Shown here: one piece after another, positions 2,231 to 21,826 of the stretch
How positions within the stretch are numbered: the stretch's first letter is position 1
How the letters are laid out: each line of letters starts with the position of its first letter
Assembly: GCA_965214095.1 (NCBI GenBank)
Contig: OZ243938.1
Location: forward strand, 3,264,001 to 3,328,000
Direction of reading: 5' to 3'
DNA: 64,000 nt
DNA from: Candidatus Poribacteria bacterium
GTDB lineage: Bacteria; Poribacteria; WGA-4E; WGA-3G
Program-made: the position numbers and the translations under genes
Notes under the pieces: generated by a model
The model's database searches: none
What the model was told of the DNA's origin: nothing
The model's input: the letters and a program-made list of their open reading frames with translations, nothing else

Positions 2231-5200
2231 ATGAAAAATGCTGATGTTGAACTCATCCAACGTGTCCTTGATGGTGATGATACTGCGTTTACCGAACTGG
2301 TTAAGAAATACCAGAAATCTGTTCACGCGCTTGCATGGCGGAAGGTTCAAGACTTCCACATTGCAGAGGATATCACACAAGAAACATTCCTAAAGGTATA
2401 TCGGAATCTGTCAACACTGAAGGAACCCCAATCTTTTGCAAGTTGGTTGTATGTCATAGCAACAAACCACTGCAAGACGTGGCTTAGTAAGAAGCAAGTG
2501 TGGACACAATCGTTGGATAACTTCAATAGCGCAGAATTGGAAAAAGCAACCTATTCCAGCTATGTCAGTGCGGAAAACGAGCGGGTATCAGTAGAAGCGC
2601 AGCGTGAAGTTGTCAAAAAGTTACTTGCTAAGTTGCAGGAGAGTGACCGCACGGTCATAACGCTCTATTACCTCGGGGGAATGACGTATGAAGAGATAAG
2701 CAAGTTTTTAGGTGTATCGGTAAGTGCAATCAAGAACCGTCTCTACCGAGCACGCCAGTTTCTAAAGAAGGAGGAACCTATGATAAGAGAAGCTTTAGAG
2801 AATTACCAAATCACTCCAAATCTCACTGAGAACATCATGCAAGAAATATCTCGTCTCAGACCTACACCTTCCACCAGCAAACCCCTCGTGCCGTGGACAG
2901 TTGCTGCTGCAAGTGCAGTCTTAATTGTGTTACTACTTGGCATAGGTAGTCAGAACTTAGTCCATTTCCAACATCCTTATTCATTAGATGCACAAGCAGA
3001 GATGACGGTTGAACTTGTTGACACACCGATTGTGCTAAATATAGATGCAGAACCAGATGTTAGAAATCAATTTGGCAGTATAAATCCTGCTGGTGATAAT
3101 GAGAATGAAGGTCAGAAACCAGATGAAGTTTTGTTGGCTGCCGCAGAAACTGAAACAGATGACAAGGTATCCACATCCAAACAGCAGTGGATTCAATCTG
3201 AACCTATCAAAGGAAGTAGAGTACATAACCTCCATGTTACATCTGAAGGAGAACTCTACGTACTTACTAATACCAATAATGATCCTATCTACAAATTGTC
3301 TGCCAACGGTAACAACTGGTTACATATCTTTGACACTAAGTCATTGGATATTAAAGGTTGGTTAGGAAGTCGCATTGTAAAGTGGAACAATACGTTGTAC
3401 TATGTGCCATCTCATCAACTCTTCGCTATTAATGATGATAGCAAAACGGGTGATTTAATTTACACCTGGGATGGTAACAAATATGTGGAACCCGTTGAAT
3501 TCATTGTAACAGAAGGCACTTTTTATATCGCATTTAGGAATGGAATTTTGCGTTCCGAAGACAATGGTAGAACATGGGAGGAAATTAATGATGGATTAAT
3601 GGATGGAATTAGATCCTTAGTCAAAATCCAAAACACTCTGTTTGTTGGGACAGAAAATGGACTCTACCGTTTAATAGGTGACATCTGGCAACATGTGGAA
3701 TTCGCAGCACCTGTCGGCTGGATCCGTTCAATTGCAGTGACTGAAGATAATCTCTATGTTGCAGCAGACATAAACCGTCGTGCAGTTCCCCTTGAAGAGT
3801 GGTACACCTGGTGGGTATTCCGATCAACTGACATGGGGAACTCGTGGAGAAATATTACACCTAAAAATGCATGGTCTGTAAAGGAGGTCATTCCCTTTGT
3901 TAAACTTATTGCTGTTGGCGAAACACTCTTAATCAGCTGGAGAGATGTTGGTTTAGTACGCTCTACCGATAGTGGAGATACATGGATGCCTGTACAAGAA
4001 CCCAATTCTTACCCCAACATAGGCACTCATACCCCTGCTGTAGCCTTAAATGAACAAACTTTTTATATTGCAAGTGATGATGATGGACTGCATCGTTCCA
4101 TTGACGGTGGTAAGTCGTGGCATGCTATAAACATAGATCGTAAAAGTAAATTTCAGATGGATGACATAATTGCCAATAGAGGATTTGGTAAAGTGGAAAA
4201 CATGCCTACGGCAGTCTATGCGAAAGTTGGAAAAGAAATTGTGAAAACAACCGATAAGGGAAAATTCTGGAATACTGTTCAAATGGAAGAACCAAAGACT
4301 TCACGGGCAACAGTAGAAAGACCTTTTATTACCCAGATAGTCAAATCTGGAGATATTATCTATGCTAAAGGTGGAGATTCCTATGGTGATGGCAGTAGGT
4401 ATTCTTCAGGTGATGGTATTACACGTCTCTACCACATTTCTACAGATGACAATATCCTAAGACGAGTTCCAGACATTCCAATTTTTGATGCTAAACCATT
4501 AAGATTCCATTTGGCGGGAAGAACAACAAACTCTTTTGACTCACCAGAAGAAGAAGAAAAGTTCATAAAACGGATACAAAAAAGTACTGGTGGAGCAACT
4601 CAATTTTTCAAACATTTAGCTAAATGGGATCCAAAACAACCAGATTTCTATATGAAATTGGGGTTTCACGGACCGTTTGCAGTCAGTGCCAATACCTTTT
4701 ATTTGGAATATAACTTCAAACTCTTTCGGTACAAGAAGGGTGAGAGAGAATGGTCCGATACAGGGGTGGAAGAAACCATCGAGTTAACCTTGGATATAGC
4801 AGTGAAAAATCTCAAACTTGCCGTTTCAGGGAACACTGTCTATGTCGGCAAACGGGATGGCACTCTCTTACAGTCATTTGATGCCGGAACCAATTGGATT
4901 GATCTCACACCAGTACTACCATTCCCAGTAAAAGCATTCAAAGATATCGTGATTGTTAATGATACAGTGTATGTAGCAACAGATGCAGGTGTCACCACAT
5001 CAGATCGTGGAAATAATTGGGGTGTTATTACCGATTCAGAAGGCACAAATCTCAATATGGACATACTGACTGCTGATGGTACGATACTTTATGCTGTTTC
5101 CCAAGATACTGGTATCTATCGCTTGGAAAATGATACATGGAATCAGATTGTTTCAGAGATTCCAGAAAACATAACATCTCTCGCTGTCAATGGAAACACA

Positions 5201-5254
5201 TTATTTATTAGCACTGAAAGAAACGGAATGTTCCATTTTACTCTTGATGAATAA
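2231..5254 (+). CDS. ECF sigma factor fused to TM helix and Asp-box/BNR beta-propeller (array copy 1)
   Basis: sigma2 (AEDITQETFLK...FASWLYVIA), sigma4 (MTYEEISKFLGVSVSAIKNRLYRAR), hydrophobic helix PWTVAAASAVLIVLLLGIG, repeated SxDxGxTW boxes. Confidence 0.92.
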   Translation: MKNADVELIQRVLDGDDTAFTELVKKYQKSVHALAWRKVQDFHIAEDITQETFLKVYRNLSTLKEPQSFASWLYVIATNHCKTWLSKKQVWTQSLDNFNSAELEKATYSSYVSAENERVSVEAQREVVKKLLAKLQESDRTVITLYYLGGMTYEEISKFLGVSVSAIKNRLYRARQFLKKEEPMIREALENYQITPNLTENIMQEISRLRPTPSTSKPLVPWTVAAASAVLIVLLLGIGSQNLVHFQHPYSLDAQAEMTVELVDTPIVLNIDAEPDVRNQFGSINPAGDNENEGQKPDEVLLAAAETETDDKVSTSKQQWIQSEPIKGSRVHNLHVTSEGELYVLTNTNNDPIYKLSANGNNWLHIFDTKSLDIKGWLGSRIVKWNNTLYYVPSHQLFAINDDSKTGDLIYTWDGNKYVEPVEFIVTEGTFYIAFRNGILRSEDNGRTWEEINDGLMDGIRSLVKIQNTLFVGTENGLYRLIGDIWQHVEFAAPVGWIRSIAVTEDNLYVAADINRRAVPLEEWYTWWVFRSTDMGNSWRNITPKNAWSVKEVIPFVKLIAVGETLLISWRDVGLVRSTDSGDTWMPVQEPNSYPNIGTHTPAVALNEQTFYIASDDDGLHRSIDGGKSWHAINIDRKSKFQMDDIIANRGFGKVENMPTAVYAKVGKEIVKTTDKGKFWNTVQMEEPKTSRATVERPFITQIVKSGDIIYAKGGDSYGDGSRYSSGDGITRLYHISTDDNILRRVPDIPIFDAKPLRFHLAGRTTNSFDSPEEEEKFIKRIQKSTGGATQFFKHLAKWDPKQPDFYMKLGFHGPFAVSANTFYLEYNFKLFRYKKGEREWSDTGVEETIELTLDIAVKNLKLAVSGNTVYVGKRDGTLLQSFDAGTNWIDLTPVLPFPVKAFKDIVIVNDTVYVATDAGVTTSDRGNNWGVITDSEGTNLNMDILTADGTILYAVSQDTGIYRLENDTWNQIVSEIPENITSLAVNGNTLFISTERNGMFHFTLDE

Positions 5255-5336
5255 AATTCATTTTCTGGCCGGTGTCAAACACCGTCAATCTCATCTCTAT
5301 TATCCTTTTCTCCAAATTTCTCTTAATGCAGAATTA

Positions 5337-5365
5337 TGCAACCGTTTTACACCTAATTTGAGGCA
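5337..5365 (+). promoter_or_regulatory. Putative ECF promoter, class B, with mutated -10 (GCAAC-N19-GGCA)
   Basis: Near-identical to the copy-6 promoter except GTCA is GGCA. Confidence 0.55.
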
Positions 5366-5417: not shown

Positions 5418-8264
5418 ATGAAAAACGACGGTGCACTTATTAGACAAATACTCAGCGGTGATCAAATCGCTTTCGTTGGACTCGTGAAAAAGTATCAAAA
5501 ACAAGTTCACGTACTAGCATGGCGGAAGATTGGAGATTTCCACATTGCCGAGGACATTACCCAGGATGTCTTTTTGAAAGTATATCAGAAACTTCACACT
5601 CTGAAAGATCCGAATCAGTTTTCTGGGTTGCTCTACGTCGTGACAACTAACCTATGCAATACATGGCTCAGTAAAAATCGGGATCATTACCAGGTATCAG
5701 AAGATATTGAGACAACTATGATAGAAAGAGACGTATATTCCCGACATATAACAGAAGAGCGAGTTAAGACCACTCTTGAAGCACAACGTGAAGTGGTCAA
5801 GAGATTACTTGCTAAGTTGAAAGAAAGTGAACGCACGGTAATGACTCTCCATTATCTCGGCGAGATGACAGTAGAAGAGATTAGCAAGTTCTAAGGGGTT
5901 TCTGCTGGAACGATAAAGAGCCGACTTCAACGAGCGCGTAACCGTCTACAGAAGGAGGAAACAATGATTAGAGAAGCACTCAACCATTTTCAAATTTCAC
6001 CAAACCTAACTGAGAACATCATGCAAGAAATATCACGTCTCAAACCTACACCTCCCACCAGCAAACCACTTGTGCCGTGGGCAGTTGCTGGTGCAAGTGC
6101 TATCTTAATATTGTTGATGCTTGGTATAGGCAGCCAGAATTTAGTTCGTTTTCAGCAACCTTATACAATAGATGCACAAGCAGAAACAACAGTTGAACTT
6201 GTTGATGCACCTATTGTGCTAAATCTTGATACGAAACCAGATGTCCGAAATCAATTGGGAAACTCAAATGCGTTGGGTATAAGTGAGAGTGAAGGTCAGA
6301 AACCAGATGAAGTCCTGTTGGCTGCTGCACAGGTGGAAGAAAAAGATGTTTCAGATCCGAAACAACAGTGGAATCTGGCTGTTCCCATAAAAGGGAGTTT
6401 TGTAAGTGGTATGACAATCAATTCTAGTGGTGATATTTTCACTTATAATCATGGACTTATCTTTAAATTATCGTCTGATAAGAAGGAGTGGGAGTACATC
6501 CCCACTGCACATAGACTTAATATCACTCATAGTAAGTCTACACATATGAGACTAAAAGAATGGAACAGTACACTTTATCTCCTTCTAATCGAAAAACTCC
6601 TTACTTCAAAGGATGAAGGTATGACATGGGAACTGCTTTACACCTTCCCAATAGATCGGAATCGTGGACCGTTTGACTTCATAGCATCAGAACAGGCGTT
6701 ATTTGCCATCTTTTCAGACAATACTGTATTCCGTTCTGAAGACAATGGAAATACATGGAATATAGTCACCAATGAATTCCCAAAAGCACTAAACACTTTA
6801 GTAGTAGTGCAAGACATCATGTTTGCTGGAACACGTACAGGATTGTATCGTAAGAACATAGATGGATGGGAACACTTGAAATTTCCAACATCCAGGAATA
6901 TAGAAGTAACTTCAATCTTATCAATTAAGGATCAACTCTATGCTACTGGGTTACCAAACCCTTATTCGGAAAAGGATCAAAATCGGTGGATTTTTCGTTC
7001 AATTGACCTCGGTGATTCATGGGATGACATAACACCTACGATCACTTGGTCGAAAAACAGATGGCCACCAGGAATTACTCTCATTGCGACTGATGATACA
7101 CTCTTGGTAATGGAAAAGGGCATGGTTCTTTCAAAGGATAGTGGAGATACATGGTTATCACCACCATTAACAGGAACTACTCCGACAATGCAAAGGTTTA
7201 GTCCATTTGTTGTGACTGATGATTGTGTCATTTATGTTGGTAGTCCGGAGGATGGTCTATTCCGTTCAACGGATAAAGGCAATTCATGGAAAGCAATCAA
7301 TGTTCAACCAGTTGTTCCACGAATACATAACCTAATCGCATATAAGAGAAGTGACAATACACAGAACACACCATCGGACCTCTATGGTCTTCACTTAGGA
7401 GAGATAGCAAATACTACAAACAAAGGCAAATCTTGGCAAGTCGTTCGAATGGGAAAAGAAATGACAGATAATCCTAACATAATAGGAGTACCTCCAACTA
7501 TCAGTAAAATTGTCAAACACGGTGATATTCTCTATGCAAGAGGTACGGATCTCGTCATGGGAGACATGCTTATCTATCGCGTATCCCGTGATGATAGGAC
7601 GCTTGTACCGATACAAGGGATGCCTGTTCTTAACGCGAAGAGTAATCTTAGAAAAGACCGTATTCAAGAGGGATTAGAGGGAGTCTGCGCTGTTGACAAC
7701 GACACATTCTATATTGAATATAACTATAAACTATTCCGTTGGAAGCAAGGTGATACGGATTGGTTCGACACTGGACTGGAAGAAACCTTACATTTACCTA
7801 AGGACATTTTAAGGAGAACTCTTAAACTGGCGGTTTCAGGGAACACTGTCTATGTCGGTAAACGCGATGGACATTTGTTCGTATCGTATGATTCCGGAGA
7901 AAACTGGATAGACCTCACACCAGCTCTGCCATTCACCGTTAAGTCCTTCAAAGGCATTGTGACTGCTGGTTCCACCGTATATGTCGCAACAGACACAGGT
8001 ATCATCACATCTGATAATGGAAGAAATTGGACTACTATCACAGATACGGATGGAATCAATCTCAAAATCGACTACATGGCTATTGATGACACAACACTCT
8101 ATGGAGTTACAAAGGATACTGGTATCTATCGATTGGAAAATGGCACATGGAATCAGATTGTGTCAGAGATACCAGAGAGAATAACATCTCTCGCTGTTGA
8201 TGGAAACACCTTATATGTAGGAACACAGGATCAAGGTATGCTTCACTATAATCTCAGTGAATAA
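5418..8264 (+). pseudogene. ECF sigma-TM-beta-propeller copy 2, in-frame nonsense codon in sigma4; downstream ORF 5964-8264 intact
   Basis: aag ttc TAA ggg gtt at 5892-5894, versus aag ttc TTA ggg gtt in copy 6. Both halves are in the same frame. The conserved sigma2 W is also L (ttg, 5628-5630). Confidence 0.88.
5964..8264 (+). CDS. TM + Asp-box beta-propeller (C-terminal part of copy 2), possibly translated on its own
   Basis: 766-aa open frame; AGGAGG at 5953-5958, 5 nt before the ATG. Confidence 0.6.
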   Translation: MIREALNHFQISPNLTENIMQEISRLKPTPPTSKPLVPWAVAGASAILILLMLGIGSQNLVRFQQPYTIDAQAETTVELVDAPIVLNLDTKPDVRNQLGNSNALGISESEGQKPDEVLLAAAQVEEKDVSDPKQQWNLAVPIKGSFVSGMTINSSGDIFTYNHGLIFKLSSDKKEWEYIPTAHRLNITHSKSTHMRLKEWNSTLYLLLIEKLLTSKDEGMTWELLYTFPIDRNRGPFDFIASEQALFAIFSDNTVFRSEDNGNTWNIVTNEFPKALNTLVVVQDIMFAGTRTGLYRKNIDGWEHLKFPTSRNIEVTSILSIKDQLYATGLPNPYSEKDQNRWIFRSIDLGDSWDDITPTITWSKNRWPPGITLIATDDTLLVMEKGMVLSKDSGDTWLSPPLTGTTPTMQRFSPFVVTDDCVIYVGSPEDGLFRSTDKGNSWKAINVQPVVPRIHNLIAYKRSDNTQNTPSDLYGLHLGEIANTTNKGKSWQVVRMGKEMTDNPNIIGVPPTISKIVKHGDILYARGTDLVMGDMLIYRVSRDDRTLVPIQGMPVLNAKSNLRKDRIQEGLEGVCAVDNDTFYIEYNYKLFRWKQGDTDWFDTGLEETLHLPKDILRRTLKLAVSGNTVYVGKRDGHLFVSYDSGENWIDLTPALPFTVKSFKGIVTAGSTVYVATDTGIITSDNGRNWTTITDTDGINLKIDYMAIDDTTLYGVTKDTGIYRLENGTWNQIVSEIPERITSLAVDGNTLYVGTQDQGMLHYNLSE

Positions 8265-8281
8265 GTAGATTTGCGCAAATG

Positions 8282-8428
8282 CACAATCTTGTCGGCGCGC
8301 TTTTTATGGTGAGGCATACGAATTATATCTACACTTTCTATGAACGGTAGACGAGGTTTCCTAACCTCGCCTTAGCAATGTGTAGAATTATTTCAATAAT
8401 TTACCATAAATGCACCGACAAGATTGTG
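8282..8428. repeat. Nested inverted-repeat (MITE/REPIN-like) element containing a GTAG REP-like hairpin
   Basis: 14-bp perfect IR cacaatcttgtcgg/ccgacaagattgtg; inner arms tttatggt/accataaa and tctacac/gtgtaga; central gtagacgaggtttcctaacctcgcct at 8347-8372. Confidence 0.6.
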
Positions 8429-8476: not shown

Positions 8477-8504
8477 TTGACAAACCCACCTAATTTGGTA
8501 GAAT
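8477..8504 (+). promoter_or_regulatory. Putative sigma70 promoter
   Basis: TTGACA-N16-TAGAAT with TG extension, upstream of copy 3. Confidence 0.5.
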
Positions 8505-8551: not shown

Positions 8552-8580
8552 TGCAACCGTTCTCCTCCTAACTTGCGTCA
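8552..8580 (+). promoter_or_regulatory. Putative ECF promoter, class B (GCAAC-N19-GTCA)
   Basis: Motif and spacing shared with copies 2, 4 and 6. Confidence 0.65.
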
Positions 8581-8629: not shown

Positions 8630-11629
8630 ATGAATAACGACGATGTTGCACTTATCAGACAAATTCTTGATGGTGACGAAATCGCTTTCGCTGAACTTGT
8701 GAAAAAGTATCAAAAACAGGTTCACGTGTTAGCATGGCGAAAGATTGGTGACTTTCATATCGCTGAGGACATTACCCAAGACACCTTCCTGAAAGTGTAT
8801 CAGAGACTACATACCTTGAAAGATCCAAACCTATTTTCTGGGTGGCTCTATGTAATTACGACACGTTTATGTGCTACATGGCTACGGAGAAATAGAATTC
8901 AAACGCAACCTTTGGAGGATGTAGAGGAAAGCATGATACAGAGAGATGCATATTCACAACATGTCGCTGATGAACGCGCTAAAACAACCTCTCAGACACA
9001 ACGGGAAGTAGTCAAGAGACTTCTCGCGAAATTGAAAGAGAGTGAACGTACGGTGATGACGCTCTACTACCTCGGTGAAATGACAGTTGAAGAGATTAGC
9101 AAGTTCTTAGGTGTTTCTGCAGGAACGATAAAAAGCCGGCTTCAACGAGCACGTAACCGTTTACAAAAGGAAGAAACAATGATTAGAGAAGCACTCGACC
9201 ATTTCAAACTCTCACCGAACTTAACTGAAAACATCATGCAAGAAGTTTCGCGCCTCAGACCTACACCTTCCACCAGCAAACCTATAGTGCCGTGGGCAGT
9301 AGCTGCTGCAAGTGCAGTCTTAATTGTATTGATGCTTGGCATAGGCAGTCAACAATTACTCCGTTTTCAAAAACCTTTTTCATTAGATGCACAGGCAGAG
9401 ATGACAGTTGAACTTGTTGACACACCAATTGTGCTAAATATAGACACAAACCCAGATGTCCAAAATCGATTGGGCAATACAAATCCGTTGGGTATAAGTG
9501 AGAATGAAGGTCAGAATCCAGATGACATCTTGTGGGCAGTCGCGCAGGGGGAAGGAAAAGATGTTTCTGCTCCTAAACAACAGTGGATCCTGTCCGAACC
9601 TATCTATGGAAGCATAGTACAAGGTTTATGTGCTACCGAAGAAGAACTTTACGCTGTTAATTTTGCACACATATACAAATGGCAAGACGATAGCACGGGA
9701 TGGCAACAAGTTAGTGGTAACATCAGCGAAGTCAATGGTAAACAGATTGAAATCAATAGTGCAAGTAAAGTTCCGATAGCAAAGTTAGACAATACTCTTT
9801 ATATTGTTTTAGAAAATTTATTCTTAGCTTCAGAAGATGATGGGAAGAACTGGAAGATTGTTCATTCATGGACAGATGATTATCGTCTGCCTAACAAATT
9901 AGTGCTTACAGATCAAGAGTTTTGTGTCCAATTTAACAATGCCGTTTTCCGTTCAGAGGATAGAGGCATGACATGGAAGAATGTGAACGTTGATATATTT
10001 CAAGGTTCCAACTTTCTTATAGCAATACAGAACTCAGTATATGCTGGATCAAACACTGGCTTGTATCGCTGGAATACCGACAGATGGCAACGTATAAAAC
10101 TACCCATACCTGAAGCAATATTGGTCACTGATGCAGCAGCTACCAAAGATCGACTGTACGTAATGGCATCATTAGGTACTGACTTTTTTGATGATAAAGC
10201 AGCACGGAAGGGACAACAGCGGACTTGGTGGATATTCAGATCAACAGACCTCGGAAATTCATGGAAAGATATTACACCGACAAATGCCTGGCCCGTAAAG
10301 GGGGTACCACCCGATATCAATATGGTTGCTGCTGGTGAAACTATTCTGTTAATGGGACAAGGTCTGGTGCGTTCTACCGATGCAGGCGATACTTGGATGC
10401 CACTACAAGCCTCTACCACCTTCCCTATGAAAGTTTCCTCTGATAATACTCCTGTAGCAGTAAATGAAGGCACTTTTTTTGCTTCAAGGGGAGGTTTACA
10501 CCGGTCCACTGATGCTGGTCAATCATGGGAAAAAGTAAGAATCGCTCAGGATAAGATGAGATATGTTATAGAAAACCTAATCAAATTCAATAAGAACAGA
10601 AAAAGTCAAAACAGGCTACCTACTCTCTACGGGATAGATGTGGCAAGGCTTGTAAAAACAACTGACCAAGGTAAGTCTTGGAACGTTGTTCAGGTTGAAA
10701 TGCCTATGACGATACCTGTAAGAGAAGACCAACCATGGATTAATCAACTAACTACAACTGGTGATGTAATCTATGCAAGAGGCCACAGTGATTACCCTAT
10801 CGGAGAATTGCAATACTATCGTGTATCCGAAGATGGGAACACATTAGTTCCTATTCAAGGAATTCCTACCTTTGACTCAAGGAGATTAAGAGACCATCTA
10901 CATGAATCAAAAGATCTCTCTATAGAAACGCTGCAGGAAGAGTTTTCTGGAGCAACTCAATTCTTCAATGCGTTGCTTATATCAGATCCTCAACAACAGG
11001 ATATACTCATACAATCAGGACTTAACGGAACTTTTGCTGTCAGTAATGATATCATCTATATGGAGTACAACTTTAAACTCTTTCGGTGGGAACCAGGAGA
11101 TACAGAATGGCACGACATAAGGCAAGAAGAAACCTCAATCATCGCATGGCAAAATCTCCAACTCGCTGTCTCAGGAGATACAGTCTACGTCGGAAAACGT
11201 GATGGTCACCTTGTCGTATCGTTTGATAGGGGAGATCGCTGGATTGATCTTACACCAGCCCTGCCATTTACTGTTACAACTTTCAAAGAGATTGTGGTTG
11301 CTGGATCCACCGTGTATGTTGCAACGGACGCAGGCCTCATTAAATCTGATGATGGCAAAAATTGGCATATCCTTACTGATTCAAAGGGAACAAATCTCAT
11401 CATGGAACAGTTAGCAGTTGATGGCACAACGCTTTACGGTATTACCCAACAAACAGATCTATATATTTTGGAAAGTGATACTGACACTTGGAAACAGATC
11501 ATCACGGATATTCCGGAAGGTGCAATAATGGATGTAACGGCTAACGGAACATCTCTTATTGTTGCTGGCAGCAATTTATACTTGGGTACAGTATTTGAAG
11601 GTATACTGCATTTAACTCTTGAAGAATAA
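8630..11629 (+). CDS. ECF sigma-TM-Asp-box beta-propeller (array copy 3)
   Basis: sigma2/sigma4 motifs (GVSAGTIKSRLQRAR), TM helix, SxDxGxxW repeats; GGAGA RBS. Confidence 0.92.
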   Translation: MNNDDVALIRQILDGDEIAFAELVKKYQKQVHVLAWRKIGDFHIAEDITQDTFLKVYQRLHTLKDPNLFSGWLYVITTRLCATWLRRNRIQTQPLEDVEESMIQRDAYSQHVADERAKTTSQTQREVVKRLLAKLKESERTVMTLYYLGEMTVEEISKFLGVSAGTIKSRLQRARNRLQKEETMIREALDHFKLSPNLTENIMQEVSRLRPTPSTSKPIVPWAVAAASAVLIVLMLGIGSQQLLRFQKPFSLDAQAEMTVELVDTPIVLNIDTNPDVQNRLGNTNPLGISENEGQNPDDILWAVAQGEGKDVSAPKQQWILSEPIYGSIVQGLCATEEELYAVNFAHIYKWQDDSTGWQQVSGNISEVNGKQIEINSASKVPIAKLDNTLYIVLENLFLASEDDGKNWKIVHSWTDDYRLPNKLVLTDQEFCVQFNNAVFRSEDRGMTWKNVNVDIFQGSNFLIAIQNSVYAGSNTGLYRWNTDRWQRIKLPIPEAILVTDAAATKDRLYVMASLGTDFFDDKAARKGQQRTWWIFRSTDLGNSWKDITPTNAWPVKGVPPDINMVAAGETILLMGQGLVRSTDAGDTWMPLQASTTFPMKVSSDNTPVAVNEGTFFASRGGLHRSTDAGQSWEKVRIAQDKMRYVIENLIKFNKNRKSQNRLPTLYGIDVARLVKTTDQGKSWNVVQVEMPMTIPVREDQPWINQLTTTGDVIYARGHSDYPIGELQYYRVSEDGNTLVPIQGIPTFDSRRLRDHLHESKDLSIETLQEEFSGATQFFNALLISDPQQQDILIQSGLNGTFAVSNDIIYMEYNFKLFRWEPGDTEWHDIRQEETSIIAWQNLQLAVSGDTVYVGKRDGHLVVSFDRGDRWIDLTPALPFTVTTFKEIVVAGSTVYVATDAGLIKSDDGKNWHILTDSKGTNLIMEQLAVDGTTLYGITQQTDLYILESDTDTWKQIITDIPEGAIMDVTANGTSLIVAGSNLYLGTVFEGILHLTLEE

Positions 11630-11705
11630 CGAATCTTTCATGACGGCACAGCCTGATGTCCTTTTCCTGTTTTTCCTCAAATATTTCTTTCTTTTGCAGA
11701 ATTTG

Positions 11706-11733
11706 GCAACCATTTTGCATCTATCTTGCGTCA
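11706..11733 (+). promoter_or_regulatory. Putative ECF promoter, class B (GCAAC-N19-GTCA)
   Basis: gcaaccattttgcatctatcttgcgtca. Confidence 0.65.
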
Positions 11734-11783
11734 CTATAGGTTGATATATCAAAAACCCTCATATATTAGACAGGATGTATCTG

Positions 11784-14700: not shown

Positions 14701-14891
14701 TACTGACTGCTGATGGCACAAAACTCTATGGCGTTACCAAAGATACTGGCATTTATCGTTTGGAAAATGATGCATGGTATCAGATTGTTTCAGAGATTCC
14801 AGATAACATAAATTCTCTCGCTGTTGATGGGAATACCTTATTCGTGGGAACACAAGACCGCGGTATGCTTCATTTCACTCTTGAAGAATAA
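11784..14891 (+). CDS. ECF sigma-TM-Asp-box beta-propeller (array copy 4)
   Basis: Same architecture. Start set at MNNDD (11784) by alignment with copy 3; the ORF track opens at 11775. Confidence 0.92.
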   Translation: MNNDDVTLIQRILADDEAAFAELVKKYQKAVHTLAWRKIDDFHIAEDITQDAFLKVYQRLHTLKDPKQFSGWLYVITSNLCATWLRKKRLRTQPIEDEEAVMTPRDVYSQHVVEERNQAAAETQREVVKKLLARLKESERTVMSLYYLGEMRVEEISRFLGVSTSTIKSRLRRARNRLQKEETMIREALEHFKLSPNFTENIMQEISHLKPTPSTSKPLVPWTVAASSAILIVLMLGIGSQNLVRFQKPYSLDAQAEMTVELVDTPIVLNIDAKPDVRNQLGSINPAGDSENEGQKPDEVLLAAAETEDENKVSVPKQRWIQSEPVKGSDVDALSVTSNGELYSVANRHIYKIESDGEAWQQIANIDTLDVKYGSSAFIKEWDNMLYLLLDSTILTSKDDGKTWELVNTLLTDSTFALDFILTNQAFYIIFSNYTAFRSEDKGVTWEAMNVDFPQNPNSIVVIQDTMFTGTFNGLYRLKEDNWVPMKLPGSVSAILSVAGSDGKIYVAAEFSKDVTSSQKVRQGLARGWWIFRSTDLGDSWDDITPKNAWPVMGLPPKIKLVAVGETLLAMEQGMVRSTDAGNTWQPRQLPGTSPSMDNRLSYVATVNDRSIYVGSKKDGLYRSTDGGISWDPVNINGRNWKIITNLITVEGNNKTPNMPSMLYAEFAGDIVKTTDKGKSWRRIRMGIPMTAPVREVPPYFSRLGEFGGTLYAKTDGWRSFRSEYKTGLYRISEDGNSVMSIQGMPTFNSSMLKHLWKNGRRGSLDVSDKSFIEQLNENFVGADQFFKTLAQEKTLTQNELDQEQLYEDQERLILEGLLDGAFAVSGDTFYFEYNFKLFRWKSGETTWYDTGVQETGELRYFEAAKAFEREGLSNEKIGEIIRAWQFGFKLAVSGNTVYVGKRDGTLLQSFDAGTNWVDLTPVLPFPVKAFKDIVIVNDTVYVATDAGVTTSDRGNNWGVITDSEGTNLNMDILTADGTKLYGVTKDTGIYRLENDAWYQIVSEIPDNINSLAVDGNTLFVGTQDRGMLHFTLEE

Positions 14892-15059: not shown

Positions 15060-15087
15060 TGAGACTTTTTCTCCGCAAGTCGCGTCA
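15060..15087 (+). promoter_or_regulatory. Putative ECF promoter, class A (TGAGAC-N18-GTCA)
   Basis: Matches the copy-1 promoter. Confidence 0.65.
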
Positions 15088-15133
15088 CTATACGTCAATG
15101 TGAACGATTAAGTCCCTTTGTTAGAGGTATCTA

Positions 15134-15440
15134 GTCATAGTACCCAAACCTAAAGGGTTGGGCTTGTGCTTCATAGACGTTGCGTTTCACCAAAAGGATC
15201 ATCCGTCTTATTTCGTCTCCACAGTGGGTTCTAAGCAACCTCACTTGCTCTAAAAGAGCAACTTATTATTTGAGAGTGTGTTTTTCGGACTGGGTTTTTT
15301 ACCTCCCATGTCCCTACCACTCAATTGTTATGTGTCTATGGTAGTGAGAGCGTATATGTTTTTCAGTTTTATGCTCCGCAACATATAGCACCAAAGACTG
15401 CGGACAACCTCACACACGACTGCGTGTGATTGAACTTTCC
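15134..15440 (-). ncRNA. Putative stand-alone structured RNA ending in a TnpB omegaRNA/reRNA-like scaffold
   Basis: Minus-strand 3' part CTGTGGAGAC..TAAGAC..GTCTATGAAGCACAAGCCCAACCCTTTAGGTTTGGGTACTATGAC resembles IS605/tnpB right ends. Several hairpins lie upstream, and there is a dedicated promoter. Confidence 0.55.
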
Positions 15441-15446
15441 GAATAT

Positions 15447-15475
15447 ATTTTAGCAAGTTTGACATTTATTGTCAA
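15447..15475 (-). promoter_or_regulatory. sigma70 promoter inside the element, firing leftwards
   Basis: TTGACA-N17-TAAAAT on the minus strand. Confidence 0.7.
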
Positions 15476-15539
15476 GAAAAACATAGGAGCGGGCAGGAGA
15501 CCCAAACCTAAAGGATTGGGTCTCCTGCCCGAAGATTAG

Positions 15540-18530
15540 ATGAAAAATGCTGATGTTGAACTCATCCAACGTGTCCTTGATGGCGATGATACTGCGTTCT
15601 CAGAGCTTGTGAGAAATTATAAGAAGTCAGTCCATGCGCTTGCATGGCGAAAAGTTCAAGACTTCCACATCGCAGAGGACATCACACAGGAAACATTTCT
15701 GAAGGCATATCAGAAGTTGTCAACTTTGAATGAATCACAGTCATTTGCAAGTTGGCTCTATGTGATAGCGGCGAATGAATGTAAGGCATGGCTTCGTCGG
15801 AAACGTATACGGACACAGTCTTTGGAAGATATCAATGATGCAGAGTTGGAACAAGCGACCTATTCCAACTATGTCATTAATGAAAAAGAACGGACATCAG
15901 TAGAAGCGCAGCGCGAAGTTGTCAAGAAGTTGCTTGCGAAGCTGCAGGAGAGTGACCGTACGGTCATAACGCTCTATTACCTCGGGGGAATGACGTATGA
16001 AGAAATCAGCAGATTCTTAGGTGTATCGGTCAGTGCGATCAAGAACCGCCTCTACCGAGCGCGCCAGTTTCTAAAAAAGGAGGAACCCATGATAAGAGAA
16101 GTTTTAGAGAATTACCAAATCACACCCAATTTCACTGAGAACATCATGCAAGAAATATCACGTCTCAAACCTACACCTTCCACCAGCAAACCGCTTGTGC
16201 CGTGGGCAATTGCTGCTACAAGTACAATCTTAATTATGTTGATGCTTGGCATAGGCAGCCAACAATTAGTGCGTTTTCAGCAACCTTTTACATTAGATGC
16301 GCAAGCAGATATGACGGTTGAACTTGTTGACACACCAATTGTGCTGAATCTGGATTCTGTGCCAGATGTTAGAAATAGACTGGGCAGTATAAATCCTGCT
16401 GGTGATAGTGAAAATGAAGGTCAGAAACCAGATGAAGTCCTGTTAGCTGCCGCAGAAACCGAGGATGAGGACAAGGTATCCACACCTAAACAGCAGTGGA
16501 TTCAGTCTGAACCTATTAAAGGTAGTCAAGTATATAGTCTAAAAGGCACCACGCAAGGTGATCTGTATGTTCTTGTGAGTAATAGAGGAACTCCAAACAT
16601 CCTCAAGTTAACATCGGATGGAAATACTTGGCAATCTATAGATGGTTACCCGTCAGGTACAGTTTGGGGATTTAACGCAGCTATGGTAGAGTGGAATAAT
16701 ACTTTTTACATTATACCATCTAACGAGCTCTTTGCATCAGAAGATGAAGGAAAGACTTGGAATTCACTTTACACGTGGTCTAAAGACCACAATGTGATTG
16801 ATCTTCTACCCATGGATAATGCATTCTACGCTGCATTTCAAGAAGGTATTTATAAGTCTGATGATTTAGGAAAGACGTGGAAAGCAATACAAGATGAGCA
16901 AATCAAGTATATCGAATCTCTAGTAAGAATCCAAAACACATTGTTTGTTGAAACATCCACCAAACTTTACCGATTGGATGACGATGGTTTGAACTCATTG
17001 GAATTTCCAGTACCTGTTAGGAGCATTATTTCAGTTGCAGGAACTGATGGAAAGCTTTATGTTGAAGTAACGTCTAATTCAGATCGTAGTTGGTGGATAT
17101 TCCGTTCAACTGATCTTGGGGATTCGTGGATAGATATAACACCGACAAACGCTTGGTCTATAGAAGGACAACCACCTTATTGCAAATTGATTGCATCTGA
17201 AGAAACCCTGTTGGTAATGGAACAGGGAATGGTTCGCTCAACTGATGGAGGGAATACATGGCTGCCTCCACAGTTACCAGGAACCACTCCTTCAATGAGT
17301 AGTTCATATAATGCAGTTGCTGTAAATCAAGACACCTTTTATGTTGGAAGTAGTGATGGCTTACATCATTCAACTAATAAGGGAAAATCGTGGGATTTAG
17401 TGAGAGTCGCTCCAGATATGAGAAGACGTGTAATGTTTAATCTAATCGCAACCAAAAATAGTGTCGATAGTCTAAACTTGATGCCGACACTCTATGGGAT
17501 AGTTGAAGTCGGAGAGATAACAAAAACTAATGATGATGGCAAGTCATGGGAGACTGTTCGTGTTGATACACCTATGTCAACATCAAACAGAGGAAACGTA
17601 CCAACAATAACCCAGATTGTTAAATCAGGCGATGATGTCTACGTTAAAGGAGGATCTCTTGGTGAGGGAAAGGTAGGTCATTACATAGTATCTGACAACG
17701 GGAACACTTTAGTCCCAATTCAGGACATGCCAACTTTCAGTTCAACTGAATTAAGGATGCGTCTATTTACTTCTAAAGATCTTACGATAGGAGAGTTGCA
17801 AGAAGATTTCTCTGGTGCAAAAAATTTCTTCCAACAGATGCTTAATTCAGCACCTCAACAACTAATTAAGCTTGAAGAACTTGGACTTCGTGGCCCTTTT
17901 ACTGTCAGTGGTGACACATTCTATACGGAATACAACCTTAAACTCTTTAGATGGAATCCTGGAGATACAGAATGGTATGACACTGGTCAAGAAGACATTG
18001 GTGACTTTCCCTTGGATGAATTGTTCATAAGCACATTTAAGTCACACTTCATTGTTCCCAAACTTGCAGCTTATGACAACACAGTTTACTACGGAAAGCG
18101 GAATGGACAATTGGTAGTATCGTTTGATAAAGGTAATAATTGGGTTGATCTCACTCCAGGTCTACCCTATAAGGTAAAAACATATAATAGTATCGTGTTT
18201 GTGGGTTCCACAGTATATGTGGCAACAAATGCAGGTATCATTACATCAGATGATGGGAGAACGTGGAAAACTGTCACTGATTCTGGTAGATCTAATATCA
18301 TCATGGCGCATTTAGCTGTGGACGGTACAACACTCTATGGCATTACTAACACAACGAGTATCTACCGTTTAAATAGTGAAAGTGGTGCTTGGGAACAGGT
18401 TGTCACTAAGATACCAGAAATTAAAAATCTCAAAATAAGGGATTTCGTTACATCTTTCGCGGTTGCTGGAAGGACGTTGTATGTAAGTACTGAAGTAAAC
18501 GGAATGTTCCATTTTAACCTTGATGAATAA
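15540..18530 (+). CDS. ECF sigma-TM-Asp-box beta-propeller (array copy 5), separated from its RBS by the insertion
   Basis: Sigma domain very similar to copy 1; frame intact. Confidence 0.92.
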   Translation: MKNADVELIQRVLDGDDTAFSELVRNYKKSVHALAWRKVQDFHIAEDITQETFLKAYQKLSTLNESQSFASWLYVIAANECKAWLRRKRIRTQSLEDINDAELEQATYSNYVINEKERTSVEAQREVVKKLLAKLQESDRTVITLYYLGGMTYEEISRFLGVSVSAIKNRLYRARQFLKKEEPMIREVLENYQITPNFTENIMQEISRLKPTPSTSKPLVPWAIAATSTILIMLMLGIGSQQLVRFQQPFTLDAQADMTVELVDTPIVLNLDSVPDVRNRLGSINPAGDSENEGQKPDEVLLAAAETEDEDKVSTPKQQWIQSEPIKGSQVYSLKGTTQGDLYVLVSNRGTPNILKLTSDGNTWQSIDGYPSGTVWGFNAAMVEWNNTFYIIPSNELFASEDEGKTWNSLYTWSKDHNVIDLLPMDNAFYAAFQEGIYKSDDLGKTWKAIQDEQIKYIESLVRIQNTLFVETSTKLYRLDDDGLNSLEFPVPVRSIISVAGTDGKLYVEVTSNSDRSWWIFRSTDLGDSWIDITPTNAWSIEGQPPYCKLIASEETLLVMEQGMVRSTDGGNTWLPPQLPGTTPSMSSSYNAVAVNQDTFYVGSSDGLHHSTNKGKSWDLVRVAPDMRRRVMFNLIATKNSVDSLNLMPTLYGIVEVGEITKTNDDGKSWETVRVDTPMSTSNRGNVPTITQIVKSGDDVYVKGGSLGEGKVGHYIVSDNGNTLVPIQDMPTFSSTELRMRLFTSKDLTIGELQEDFSGAKNFFQQMLNSAPQQLIKLEELGLRGPFTVSGDTFYTEYNLKLFRWNPGDTEWYDTGQEDIGDFPLDELFISTFKSHFIVPKLAAYDNTVYYGKRNGQLVVSFDKGNNWVDLTPGLPYKVKTYNSIVFVGSTVYVATNAGIITSDDGRTWKTVTDSGRSNIIMAHLAVDGTTLYGITNTTSIYRLNSESGAWEQVVTKIPEIKNLKIRDFVTSFAVAGRTLYVSTEVNGMFHFNLDE

Positions 18531-18612: not shown

Positions 18613-18641
18613 TGCAACCGTTTTACTCCTAATTTGAGTCA
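18613..18641 (+). promoter_or_regulatory. Putative ECF promoter, class B (GCAAC-N19-GTCA)
   Basis: tgcaaccgttttactcctaatttgagtca. Confidence 0.65.
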
Positions 18642-18691: not shown

Positions 18692-21600
18692 ATGAAAAAC
18701 GACGGTGCACTTATTAGACAAATACTCAGCGGTGATCAAATCGCTTTCGCTGAACTCGTGAAAAAGTATCAAAAACAAGTTCACGTACTAGCGTGGCGAA
18801 AAATTGGAGATTTCCACATTGCCGAGGACATTACCCAGGATGTCTTTCTGAAAGTATATCAGAAACTTCACACTCTGAAAGATGTGAATCAGTTTTCTGG
18901 GTGGCTCTACGTCGTTACAACAAACCTATGCAATACATGGCTCAGTAAAAATCGGATGCACAACCAACCGTTGGAAAACATTGAGACAACCATGATAGAA
19001 AGAGACGTATATTCCCATCATATCACAGAAGAGCGAGTTAAGACCACTCTTGAATCACAACGTGAAGTGGTCAAGAAACTCCTCGCTAAGTTGAAAGAAA
19101 GTGAACGCACGGTAATGACTCTCCACTATCTCGGCGAGATGACAGTGGAAGAGATTAGCAAGTTCTTAGGGGTTTCTGCTGGAACGATAAAGAGCCGACT
19201 TCAACGTGCGCGGAACCGTCTACAGAAGGAGGAAACAATGATTAGAGAAGCACTCGACCATTTTCAAATTTCACCAAACCTAACTGAAAACATCATGCAG
19301 GAAGTATCACATCTCAAACCGACACCTCCCACCAGCAAACCCTTCGTGCCGTGGGCGGTTGCATCTTCAAGTATAGTATTGATTATGATGATGCTCGGAA
19401 TTGGGAGTCAGTACTTAGCCTATTTTCAGAAGCCGTATAGTTTTGATGCTCAGTCAGAGATGACGGTTGAACTAATTGATACACCAATAGTTCTGAATCT
19501 TGATACGCAACCGAGAGAACAATATCAGTTTGGAATTGCAAATGCAATTAGTGAAAATGATAACAGCGGACAGAATCCCGATGAAGTCTTATTAGCTGAT
19601 GGGAAAACTGAAGGTGAAGACATTTCAATACCTAAGCAAGAGTGGGTTGAATATGAACATCAGCCATTCGCTTTTCCAAGCAAATTACTTGCGACACCTG
19701 AAGGTGAACTCTACACTTTGACCGCTGGTGGACACCTCCACAAATTGAAGAGAGATGGTGAAAGTTGGGAACATCTCAATGATATAAGTTCTTTAATTGA
19801 TGATTTTATTGCTCCTGATTCACTAATGGCGGAATGGAACGGTATTCTATACCTGGTGTGGTATAATGAATTCTATGCGTCTAAAGATGATGGAAAAACG
19901 TGGGACTTGGTATATAAATGGGAAATACCTGCTGCGGGAGGGGATTTTGAAGTTCAGGAACTGGTGTTAACGGAAGAATCTTTTTATCTTGTTTACCCAG
20001 ATGCTGTTTTCCGTTCTGAGGATCAAGGAAAAACATGGAAGAATATGCGTGATGAATTTCCAAATGTTCCAGACTCTATAACTGTTTTTCAAGATACAGT
20101 ATTTGTCACATCAGGTACAGGTTTCTATCGAGGCAATGCCGGCAGTTGGCATAAGTTAGCGTTACCAATTCCTGAAACTGTCTATATTACTTCAGTCGCT
20201 GCTTCTAAAAACCGATTATATGTTATGGCAAATTTAGGATCTGACTTTGATCCCCAAGCAGCATCAGAGGGGCGGCAACGAACATGGTGGATATTTCGCT
20301 CAACTGATTTGGGGAATACGTGGAAAGATATAACACCCACAAACGCTTGGCCCATTAAAGGCTGGTACCCAGATCTGAAACTTATTGCTGCTGGAGAGAA
20401 CATCCTGCTAATGGAAAAGGGTATGGTAATGTCAACTGACGGAGGAGAATCTTGGCTGCCACCATTGAAACCCAATGCTTCACCTTCAATGGATTCCTAC
20501 TCACCTGCTGTGGTACTAAACGACCATAGCATTTATGTTGGTAGCGGCGATGGATTTCAAAGTTCCAAAGATGGTGGAAAAACTTGGGAAAGTATTAAAA
20601 TACCAGCACGGAAAAAGTTTTCAAGGAATATCATAGCTAATTTAATCGTATATGATGGAATTGAGAATTCACAAGAAACACCTTCAGCGGTCTATGTTAA
20701 GTCTTGGCGATCACTTGTCAAAACTACAGATAGAGGTAAATCTTGGAATCCTGTTGAAAAGGAAGTACGAATGACAGAACCCTTCAGGGAGGAACAACCG
20801 GAGATTCTTAGCATAGTAGAAGCTGATGATGGACTTTATGCTAAAGGGGGTAGTGGCTATGACACTGTAAAGAAAGTTAATATGTATAGAGTATCTGAAG
20901 ATGGAAACTCGCTGATTGGTATTCAAGGTTTTCCATACTTACACTCTCATTCAATAACTAACAAATTGGATAGGCATCACAGGAACCCCTTAGGGCTGTC
21001 TGATACAGCATTGGTTGAGGAACTTCAAAAGAATTACAAAGGTGCAACGCAGTTTTTCAAGGAATTAGTAGATTTGGCACAGGGAGAATTAGTAGATTTG
21101 GGACAAGGCGGTATTCAAGGCCAAATTATTCTGGTTCAACGTGATCTTATAAATAGAGGTTTAAACGGTACATTTGCGGTAAGTGGAGATACGTTCTACT
21201 TAGAATACAACTTCAAACTCTTCCGATGGACACAAGGTGAAAGAGAATTGTATGATACAGGTGTGGAAGAGACGATTGGTCTTACTATCAGGTTGTCTGA
21301 TGGCAAGTATTTACCCGCTACACTTATACCTCCCGCTGACATGCCAAAAGGACGTGCACTGGAAAAGTTTCGTGCTTTGCATAATCTCAAACTTGCTGTT
21401 TCAGGTAATACTGTCTACGTTGGGAAACGAGATGGCCACCTTCTTGTATCTTATGATAGAGGAGATAATTGGACAGATATCACACAAAGTTTGCCGCATC
21501 CGGTTATTGCGTTCAAGGATATAAAGTTCGTTGGGTCCAAAATATATGTAGCAACGGATGCTGGTGTAACTATGTCACATAATGGAATACAGTGGCATGC

Positions 21601-21826
21601 AATCACTGATGCAGATGGAACAGATCTCGTCATGGAATACTTGGCTGTTGATGGTAGAAGACTGTTTGGAATGACTGATAAAACTGGTGTTTATCTCTTG
21701 GTGAATGGCACTTGGGAACAGATTGTATCAGATACGCCTGAGAGATTTACTTCTCTTGCTATAGATGGGAATACTGTGTATGTTAGCACTATGCAACGTG
21801 GTATGCTCCACTATGTTCTTGAGTAG
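18692..21826 (+). CDS. ECF sigma-TM-Asp-box beta-propeller (array copy 6)
   Basis: Sigma domain very similar to copy 2 but intact; same architecture. Confidence 0.92.
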   Translation: MKNDGALIRQILSGDQIAFAELVKKYQKQVHVLAWRKIGDFHIAEDITQDVFLKVYQKLHTLKDVNQFSGWLYVVTTNLCNTWLSKNRMHNQPLENIETTMIERDVYSHHITEERVKTTLESQREVVKKLLAKLKESERTVMTLHYLGEMTVEEISKFLGVSAGTIKSRLQRARNRLQKEETMIREALDHFQISPNLTENIMQEVSHLKPTPPTSKPFVPWAVASSSIVLIMMMLGIGSQYLAYFQKPYSFDAQSEMTVELIDTPIVLNLDTQPREQYQFGIANAISENDNSGQNPDEVLLADGKTEGEDISIPKQEWVEYEHQPFAFPSKLLATPEGELYTLTAGGHLHKLKRDGESWEHLNDISSLIDDFIAPDSLMAEWNGILYLVWYNEFYASKDDGKTWDLVYKWEIPAAGGDFEVQELVLTEESFYLVYPDAVFRSEDQGKTWKNMRDEFPNVPDSITVFQDTVFVTSGTGFYRGNAGSWHKLALPIPETVYITSVAASKNRLYVMANLGSDFDPQAASEGRQRTWWIFRSTDLGNTWKDITPTNAWPIKGWYPDLKLIAAGENILLMEKGMVMSTDGGESWLPPLKPNASPSMDSYSPAVVLNDHSIYVGSGDGFQSSKDGGKTWESIKIPARKKFSRNIIANLIVYDGIENSQETPSAVYVKSWRSLVKTTDRGKSWNPVEKEVRMTEPFREEQPEILSIVEADDGLYAKGGSGYDTVKKVNMYRVSEDGNSLIGIQGFPYLHSHSITNKLDRHHRNPLGLSDTALVEELQKNYKGATQFFKELVDLAQGELVDLGQGGIQGQIILVQRDLINRGLNGTFAVSGDTFYLEYNFKLFRWTQGERELYDTGVEETIGLTIRLSDGKYLPATLIPPADMPKGRALEKFRALHNLKLAVSGNTVYVGKRDGHLLVSYDRGDNWTDITQSLPHPVIAFKDIKFVGSKIYVATDAGVTMSHNGIQWHAITDADGTDLVMEYLAVDGRRLFGMTDKTGVYLLVNGTWEQIVSDTPERFTSLAIDGNTVYVSTMQRGMLHYVLE

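Follow-up and report, generated by a model that had tools for sequence, protein, structure and literature searches.

Putative self-amplifying sigma factor–receptor fusions in a tandem array of Candidatus Poribacteria

The window analysed here is a stretch of 64,000 nucleotides from a Candidatus Poribacteria bacterium of sponge-symbiont type (assembly GCA_965214095.1, contig OZ243938.1, positions 3,264,001 to 3,328,000 of the forward strand), and it lies within a 5.2-Mb contig. Six same-strand units at positions 2231–21826 of its (+) strand each encode an extracytoplasmic function (ECF) sigma factor joined, through a predicted transmembrane (TM) helix, to a large propeller domain. We put it at somewhat better than an even chance that each unit is a fused ECF sigma/anti-sigma receptor, from which ligand-gated proteolysis would free a sigma factor that amplifies its own receptor class. 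Two properties are unusual and are supported by sequence comparison, namely a self-directed output and recombinational rewiring of sigma factors and binding domains; sequence likewise supports the architecture, promoters, distribution, re-pairing and selection described below. The genome holding the window is termed G000, and other G-, L- and P-numbers denote the other genomes, loci and clusters compared.

Architecture, array and spread of the family

All six units carry Pfam sigma2 and sigma4 matches followed by BNR/sortilin/YCF48 matches. The first-pass annotation had described a sigma2–sigma4 pair, a MIREAL linker, one TM helix, an ELVDTPIVLN-type stalk and an Asp-box propeller, and the corresponding features are found in every unit: a MIRE[AV]L linker, one hydrophobic 19-mer at residues ~219–239 (Kyte-Doolittle 1.98–2.34), an EL[VI]D[TA]P stalk and 6–8 Asp-boxes. 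PF04542, PF08281 and TIGR02937 all score above cut-off, sigma2 and sigma4 are joined by a short linker with no sigma3, as in an ECF (group 4) sigma factor, and the best PDB match is SigW (E 4e-34). In g1 (2231–5254, (+), 1007 aa), sigma2 and sigma4 occupy residues 1–180 and are followed by junction helices (182–209), the TM segment (219–239), the stalk and a 14-blade double Asp-box propeller (320–1007). The g1 TM helix (2885–2947, (+)) is predicted from hydropathy and from the charge flanks in relatives, whilst the modelled helix, at 225–246, is of low confidence. The other intact genes, also on the (+) strand, are g3 (8630–11629, 999 aa), g4 (11775–14891, 1038 aa), g5 (15540–18530, 996 aa) and g6 (18692–21826, 1044 aa), which is the last array unit.

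The claim of six tandem genes of ~1000 aa holds, with confirmed coordinates, for five of them, whereas g2 (5418–8264, (+)) is split. Its sigma factor is broken by an in-frame TAA inside sigma4 (5892–5894) and carries a second lesion, W72L, in a column that is invariant among the 105 intact genes aligned; an intact 766-aa junction–TM–propeller open reading frame (ORF) restarts at MIREAL (5964–8264). Given W72L, and a single base deleted two codons away in the equivalent gene of G032, decay of the g2 sigma factor looks real from the sequences. Contigs from four sequencing runs do not span the array, and none of the best 40 of 738 rows covers position 5893. A few low-depth joints between paralogues in the sequencing data, possibly from other strains or repeats, were not used as evidence.

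The array itself really comprises 16 units over 57 kb; it begins 35 kb before the window, in which its end is at position 21826, and 10 of the units lie upstream of the window. Thirteen units are of Asp-box type and three of WD40 type (one of these without sigma), and the passengers are one TolB-like gene and one sigma-less WD40 gene with a T9SS-type C-terminal tail (TIGR04183 at cut-off), the 3' part of which occupies 1–1896 on the (+) strand and which starts ~460 nt before the window. The whole genome has 31 junction–TM copies. Mean identity among the five intact window genes is 68% for sigma, 79% for the junction, 76% for the TM segment, 69% for the stalk and 46% for the propeller (69%, 81%, 81%, 75% and 48%, respectively, among the 12 intact Asp-box array genes). 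Sigma and stalk are conserved and propellers divergent, as had been claimed, but it is the junction–TM–stalk segment, not sigma, that is most conserved.

Where a single Asp-box propeller had been proposed, the Asp-boxes are confirmed but the ectodomain is predicted to form two 7-bladed propellers. In the full-length model (105 sequences, pLDDT 74, pTM 0.63) the strands were counted as 14 blades, with a helical insert at 755–812. The best fold matches of the ectodomain are GH74 xyloglucanases (Foldseek E 1.5e-20; VIA Z 22.3, rmsd 8.4, 571 aligned); the non-enzyme AIP1 ties with them by Z (22.2), identity to the fold matches is 12–16%, and Bacteroides hybrid two-component sensors also match, with high rmsd. 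Among 95 genes (14 dispersed or distant copies left out), the b–c and d–a loops are variable in length and the least conserved (0.41 and 0.51), whilst the Asp-box c–d loop is fixed in length and better conserved (0.72). Variable loops of this kind would suit a variable binding face, but they are generic for propellers. Blades 10–13 keep polar top-face residues (YNFK, GKRD and TDAG; g1 816–833 and 869–877), whereas blades 1–9 vary; the conserved top face may serve as a shared interface or as the site for a partner.

Each of the 16 related loci that the search returned is titled Candidatus Poribacteria. A junction–TM profile matched 129 of the 151 genomes of the phylum that were searched: 96 of 99 in the same family, usually with tens of copies (the best 38 were scored), 32 of 36 in two other families, with 1–5 copies each, and none of 15 in the six remaining families searched. 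Atlas clusters scoring 0.99 are mostly from Poribacteria, and Planctomycetota clusters score 0.79–0.80. About 135 clusters at 50% identity hold the full cassette. Of the 150 proteins that scored best with the profile, 49 were grouped as Asp-box and 47 as WD40; scanning 32 of the others revealed leucine-rich repeat (LRR), C-type lectin, carboxypeptidase-regulatory, LamG, Ig-like, Kelch, PD40, Reg_prop, TPR-trypsin, thioredoxin-like and transglutaminase cargo, with about one-third giving only sigma matches. A hydrophobic window is present in 128 of 135 cluster representatives (a single one at ~200–240 in 124), and the net charge around the helix changes from +1.6 before it to −2.1 after it. The TM assignment draws on hydropathy, on the charges to either side and on the kinds of domain found at the C-terminus, and a topology with sigma inside and cargo outside fits. 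Most footprints of the family are intact fusions (135 of 152); nine have no intact sigma but retain a junction–ectodomain ORF of at least 500 aa, six have an intact sigma with a short ectodomain, and two lie at locus ends. The array locus of G001 (L036/L015) is decaying, with truncated genes and inserted unrelated ORFs. Elsewhere in G000 (contig C1, ~0.89, 1.82, 1.88, 2.35, 4.43 and 4.55 Mb), related sigma factors without the TM cassette are fused to other domains, several of them preceded by the same promoter. A clamp fusion occurs in P0137.

Promoters and recombinational re-pairing

A −35/−10 box lies upstream of every window gene, always on the (+) strand. The GAGACT class precedes g1 (TGAGACT-N15-GAGTCA, 2157–2184) and g5 (TGAGACT-N15-GCGTCA, 15060–15087, displaced by an insertion), and the GCAACC class precedes g2 (TGCAACC-N16-GAGGCA with a degenerate −10, 5337–5365), g3 (TGCAACC-N16-GCGTCA, 8552–8580), g4 (GGCAACC-N16-GCGTCA, 11705–11733) and g6 (TGCAACC-N16-GAGTCA, 18613–18641). 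The sigma4 helix that would read the −35 box is SAIKNRLYRA in g1 and g5, GTIKSRLQRA in g3 and g6, and STIKSRLRRA in g4. Across 19 genome sources, 125 of 150 family genes pass the promoter rule (119 of 141 TM types, against 11 of 3000 shuffled upstream regions). Helix and box go together: GT.KS..Q occurs with TGCAACC in 28/28 genes, SA.KN..Y with GAGACT in 26/26, NT.RS..R with TGCACCA in 23/23, NT.KS..R with TGCACCC in 20/21 and ST.KS..R with GGCAACC in 9/10. A sixth helix, TIKTRLMRA (L045/L046), accompanies CGCGACC in 3/3 genes, as read by eye, and a single TIKSRLYRA gene (L013:11755) accompanies TGCAACT; judged by sequence, these are natural promoter-specificity variants. The two promoter classes recognized initially are thus the two main ones of the window, but on these pairings the −35 box tracks the sigma4 helix in at least five classes in the family as a whole. 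A family-type promoter without a downstream sigma gene is present at L050:6025–6052 (G017, (−) strand), and is possibly a remnant or a captured promoter.

These promoters point mainly at the family itself. The first-pass annotation had expected many ligands to feed into two promoter classes; the promoters lead to the receptor genes themselves, and a matrix search of the G000 genome, for which the core matrix was trained solely on other genomes, detected no outside regulon. At a threshold of at least 20 bits this search returned 22 sites, 18 of them before family genes, one at another intergenic position and three in coding DNA (shuffled intergenic DNA, 0–1 sites); at 17 bits it returned 81, comprising 27 family sites, seven other intergenic sites (shuffles 3–6) and 47 in coding DNA. 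The best non-family intergenic site has no gene downstream on its strand, and three recurring non-family sites are inside coding DNA. In five other genomes, 64 of 88 matches to three exact patterns lie before family genes or their operons (reversed control, 5). For the GCAACC pattern alone, five genomes that have the cassette gave 42 matches (reversed control, 2), and five in which no cassette was found gave three (control, 6). Some output is local: at L052 two other genes stand between a promoter and the sigma gene of the operon, and downstream of several dispersed copies lie genes that by eye seem to start with a signal peptide.

The pairing of sigma factor and ectodomain is not fixed. A comparison of array content across relatives, as the first-pass annotation had proposed, gave 16 units at the locus in G000, 13 found in G032 and five in G031. 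Half of the cross-genome pairs with propellers at least 80% identical (27 of 54, the pairs not being independent) have sigma factors less than 75% identical. The g1 propeller, for example, stands under a Y-class sigma in G000; in G032 its sigma is of g4 type and in G031 of the NTIR class, and the g1 and g4 sigma factors are reciprocally exchanged between G000 and G032. Nucleotide tracks place the donor switch points at codons 181–330. On FastTree trees of 95 rows, sigma class changes five times on the sigma tree and 42 times on the propeller tree (shuffled mean 55, minimum 48). Between paralogues, dS is 0.68 in the junction–TM–stalk, 1.58 in sigma and 1.28 in the propeller (the last value near saturation), and the junction–TM–stalk also has the largest number of exact matches; both are what is expected of a crossover and conversion zone. 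We conclude from these comparisons that sigma and ectodomain are re-paired by crossovers in a homogenized junction–TM–stalk. A moving unit made of a propeller and the next promoter–sigma was considered and is not supported as a rule, the next sigma being closer than a gene's own in 22 of 39 pairs.

In the rate comparison that the first-pass annotation had called for, pN/pS between orthologues is 0.13 for sigma (16 pairs) and 0.30 for the propeller (19 pairs), which places the propellers under purifying selection. Positive selection on the propellers was sought by codon window and by loop class and is rejected at this resolution: no 30-codon window exceeds a pN/pS of 0.45 and no loop class exceeds 0.39. 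The description of a diversifying receptor repertoire therefore stands, but positive selection is not its driver: as read from these sequences, the diversity is that of old paralogues under purifying selection, re-paired by recombination.

Several other elements lie among the genes. A high-copy REP/MITE-like palindromic repeat occupies part of the g2–g3 spacer (8321–8411, no strand assigned) and occurs in other array spacers, with ~130–350 related sites in the genome and 340 exact matches of its core motif on both genome strands. Downstream of it, and upstream of the g3 ECF promoter, is a sigma70-like promoter (TTGACA-16-TAGAAT, 8477–8504, (+)), an element present before five array genes. Scans of the window for terminators and sigma70 promoters gave results at shuffle level overall, with no convincing terminator between the genes. 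A 409-bp mini-element with hairpin ends (15131–15539, no strand assigned), one of four near-full copies in the genome, separates the g5 ribosome site from its ATG; in G032 this site holds an element of 1.4 kb. The insertion may silence the sigma form of g5 and leave the internal start in place. Beyond the array, 21898–25629 on the (−) strand encodes a protein of 1243 aa that begins like a signal peptide, has no Pfam match and is conserved next to the array in L005, L011 and L015. Contig C2 of G000 (32 kb) has 64% GC against 41% GC for the genome, and is perhaps a contaminant or a mobile element.

The junction, a proposed mechanism and its alternatives

In five window genes a Shine-Dalgarno sequence, AAGGAGG, followed by ATG lies within the coding sequence on the (+) strand (g1 2768–2782, the ATG being M184; g2 5952–5966; g4 12321–12335; g5 16077–16091; g6 19226–19240), and g3 has a weaker AAGGAAG (9167–9181, (+)). 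The motif complements the 16S 3' end and is longer than at the main starts. The junction KEE is coded AAG GAG GAA in 103/117 cases against 31/237 genome-wide, and no other of the 24 conserved K/E columns reaches the values of K180 (97% AAG) and E181 (89% GAG). The codon ATG comes after the junction KEE in 122/137 genes (13/150 dropped by anchor), and a distant-family copy keeps the motif despite different amino acids. This strong internal ribosome site before MIREAL probably gives a sigma-less anti-sigma/receptor form. The nine sigma-less footprints are weak support for it, because several of them are orthologues. The earlier statement that there are no separate anti-sigma genes is correct as to separate genes, yet likely wrong in substance, since the conserved internal start probably yields an anti-sigma in cis. 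Programmed frameshift release at the junction ATGA was dropped as an idea because the codons before ATGA differ between classes.

Just beyond the membrane, a small-x-small motif (mostly A-x-S, then E) occurs at residues 254–256 in 73/80 representatives (55/135 dropped by anchor). In g1 it is A-x-A (2990–2998, (+)), 15–17 residues after the TM segment, and by analogy with RsiV the family's A-x-S/A is a candidate signal-peptidase site for a first cut. The genome encodes one RseP-like M50 protease (570 aa) and three S41 (Prc/CtpA-like) proteases; with these enzymes and the signal-peptidase-like motif present, proteolysis, as proposed by the first-pass annotation, is the likely route of release. 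On the cytoplasmic side, the model of the N-terminal part (pLDDT 79, pTM 0.70; junction helices pLDDT 86–90) superposes, across both sigma domains, on the anti-sigma-bound forms of SigW (Z 15.0, rmsd 4.7, 157 aligned) and CnrH (Z 14.5, rmsd 3.3, 150 aligned), and also overlays that of Bartonella RpoE, whilst polymerase-bound ECFs give no overlay (rmsd 26–28). These models are suggestive of a sigma factor held closed by the two junction helices, and are suggestive only, given the likely training bias and the absence of a sequence match to known anti-sigmas. A complex prediction of sigma (1–178) with the junction (179–214) scored 0.07. No conserved Cys or His is present in junction columns 176–218. 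The junction profile scored best with a Notch3 TM peptide (E 0.015) and, weakly and within a tiny set, with a linker from a Paenibacillus sigma fusion (E 0.03); the junction linker may belong to a wider class of ECF extensions. The Paenibacillus cellulosilyticus gene (L060:2501–3360) fuses an ECF sigma to a domain that by eye looks like a glyoxalase, through a weakly junction-like linker.

From these elements we infer junction inhibition, cleavage, an internal product and ligands, in the following sequence. Two short junction helices would hold sigma2–sigma4 closed at the membrane, like a two-helix anti-sigma (for the roles of anti-sigma helices, see PMC7406223). A ligand on the periplasmic double propeller, guessed from the fold to be a host or envelope macromolecule (a glycan or protein), would expose A-x-S/A to signal peptidase or another site-1 protease; the RseP-like protease would then cut the remnant and free the sigma factor, which would transcribe the gene that encodes it and those sister genes that share its −35 class. 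Translation of the mRNA would give the complete fusion and also, by way of the strong internal start, a membrane receptor without sigma, which would add to the binding domain present and could re-capture free sigma. The output of such a mechanism would be not a distant regulon but a greater supply of the binding domain that is engaged and of secreted neighbours transcribed with it, whilst recombination would rewire which binding domains share a feedback class. A further step, possible but doubtful in our estimate, is that the arrays constitute an adaptive, self-selecting receptor repertoire, in which an engaged receptor amplifies itself and its class siblings, the shed or sigma-less domain is the effector and recombination reassigns classes. 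If true, bacteria would have an analogue of clonal amplification, combined with combinatorial rewiring, and many of the 'eukaryote-like' repeat proteins in sponge symbionts would be inducible sensor-effectors.

A number of points weigh against the gated, self-amplifying fusion. Met at 184 is kept in just 45/80 divergent representatives, and the junction is homogenized by conversion, which inflates the Shine-Dalgarno count and makes the copies non-independent. The A-x-S/A motif lies 15–17 residues beyond the TM segment, compared with ~7 in RsiV. Compared with PDB, Pfam and four plasmid sigma/anti-sigma loci, the junction profile gave no meaningful anti-sigma match; residues 184–316 have pLDDT <50 in the full-length model, and AlphaFold may favour the closed ECF form through its training-set structures. 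With regard to the promoters, the scoring rule was written after the G000 motifs had been seen, and the helix–box pairing amounts on the sequences to some five or six independent events and not a hundred, because promoter and sigma are inherited together and the classes need five changes on the sigma tree. Finally, 24 of the 88 pattern matches in the five other genomes are not at family genes or their operons (matching was by position), and since few of them were inspected, weak outside targets are possible.

Those 24 matches count in favour of a classical sensor funnel, which we consider unlikely: many receptors would feed few sigma classes that serve an unlinked regulon through weaker promoters, and the boxes upstream of the receptor genes would be ordinary autoregulation. 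Autoregulation is indeed normal for ECFs, and the L052 operon and the dispersed copies preceding signal-peptide-like genes are also in keeping with a funnel, but the non-family intergenic sites of G000 are at shuffle level at both thresholds, the best of them has no gene to drive, and three recurring non-family sites lie in coding DNA. Another reading is a ligand-independent export reporter, in which the hydrophobic segment is a long signal peptide cut on export and folding, the propellers are secreted binding proteins and sigma sets their level by feedback. Conservation of A-x-S/A across unrelated C-terminal domains (73/80), the strong internal start, the self-only promoters and the loss of intact sigma from nine of 152 footprints that keep the ectodomain ORF would all be explained. 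Constitutive cleavage, however, gives no reason for several −35 classes or for a conserved two-helix junction, 135 of the 152 footprints keep the whole fusion, and the n-region (33 residues) and c-region (15–17) are both long for a signal peptide, which leads us to regard this account as distinctly improbable.

A self-promoted cassette might spread selfishly or neutrally, duplicating and capturing neighbouring domains, with re-pairing a by-product of repeats, and array size (16/13/5 in the three genomes), the decay by insertion and truncation in G001 and the cassette not being found in 3/99 same-family genomes are compatible with this, as is the prior model for Planctomycetes ECFs (PMC7671368). 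Re-pairing itself may be unselected. We nevertheless give neutral spread of the whole little credence: pN/pS is low in sigma and propeller alike and most footprints are intact, the −35 boxes change together with the sigma4 helix, and the captured domains are consistently of extracytoplasmic types behind a TM segment. The ectodomains might instead be glycan hydrolases of GH74 type that, when active or bound to substrate, induce their own production, a reading that is barely credible in spite of the fold matches to xyloglucanases. Identity to these is low and their Z is tied with that of a non-enzyme; no conserved acidic residue is found in the b–c loops of blades 1 and 8 (conservation 0.1–0.4), where the GH74 catalytic aspartates lie, and most of the conserved aspartates are Asp-box positions.

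Significance and comparison with known systems

If the fused-receptor model holds, one of the most abundant sponge symbionts runs dozens of circuits whose main target is the sensor itself, which would be unusual for ECFs. The WD40, LRR, lectin and Asp-box proteins of symbionts, long a puzzle as to their role, would gain a testable function. The cassette also offers a ready-made reporter, in that a fusion with its own promoter could be screened for ligands in a laboratory host, and the natural series of sigma4 helix/−35 box pairs provides a set on which to test how ECFs recognize promoters. Whatever its mechanism, the family is large. No published description of it was found in the literature searched; 'sigma' is absent from the main text of PMC3909097, PMC8546597 and PMC5087111, and 'Poribacteria' from the searched part of the supplement of PMC7826278. 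The architecture, which the first-pass annotation saw as the best candidate for an undescribed system, is a variant of sigma/anti-sigma fusions already described (IutY, ECF57 and ECF48/52/53).

The known systems are compared here as excerpts of the cited papers describe them. One is IutY of Pseudomonas putida, an ECF243 sigma/anti-sigma hybrid made as one polypeptide and released by Prc and RseP (PMC5411451; PMC8999054), in which a cytosolic ECF sigma, a TM segment and a periplasmic domain are likewise combined. IutY is, however, a single FecI/FecR-type gene that relays from an outer-membrane receptor, whereas the Poribacteria family has a SigW/RpoE-like sigma, a double propeller, dozens of arrayed copies, several promoter classes and recombinational re-pairing. 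The window has no FecR Pfam match, and the array neighbours are paralogues, a TolB-like gene and a WD40 gene, with no TonB-dependent receptor. ECF57 shares expanded ECFs with TM-containing C-terminal extensions (WD40 in some), a conserved sigma whose extensions have different histories and a proposed release from the membrane; it is described as 100% Planctomycetes, with ~2 TM helices and an invariant pair of Cys, one each in sigma2 and sigma4, whilst neither its promoter motifs nor its context is conserved (PMC7826278; PMC7671368). Duplicated Planctomycetes ECFs with unrelated extensions are ascribed to fortuitous insertion without conserved context (PMC7671368), in contrast to the single TM helix, junction–stalk cassette, conserved self-promoters and tandem arrays seen here. 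A check for the Cys pair, with columns not matched to ECF57, found Cys81 in 114/135 and a sigma4 Cys in 47/135; none of the six window genes has the sigma4 Cys.

In ECF48/52/53 of Actinobacteria (e.g. SCO4117), sigma is connected through a TM segment to an outer domain that may bind carbohydrate, and proteolytic activation is expected (PMC7826278; PMC8999054); these proteins have a zinc-binding ZAS-like domain and extensions of at most ~400 aa, whereas the Poribacteria junction has no conserved Cys/His and the ectodomain is ~690 aa. SigV–RsiV of Bacillus subtilis is similar in that the anti-sigma is the receptor and an AXA after the TM segment is cut by signal peptidase and then by a site-2 protease (PMC4183432). 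It differs in having two separate genes, one ligand, a real regulon and an AXA nearer the membrane, and signal-peptidase cleavage is known for RsiV but would hold for the Poribacteria family by analogy. The anti-sigmas of ECF128s2, ECF39 and ECF266 carry a TM segment and BNR/sortilin/YCF48 or WD40 propellers beside an ECF (PMC7826278), but they are separate genes in Actinobacteria and Firmicutes, and the passages available describe no arrays or re-pairing. Two 7-bladed propellers, with Asp-boxes as in GH74, are shared with GH74 and with Bacteroides hybrid two-component sensors, of which BT4663 and BT4673 are membrane-linked and of similar build; the Poribacteria ectodomain departs from both in its 12–16% identity, catalytic residues that are not evident, its helical insert and an output through sigma rather than a kinase. 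Taken together, the sequence comparisons give a family that resembles IutY, ECF57, ECF48/52/53 and RsiV, yet departs from the first three in those of their defining features that were tested.

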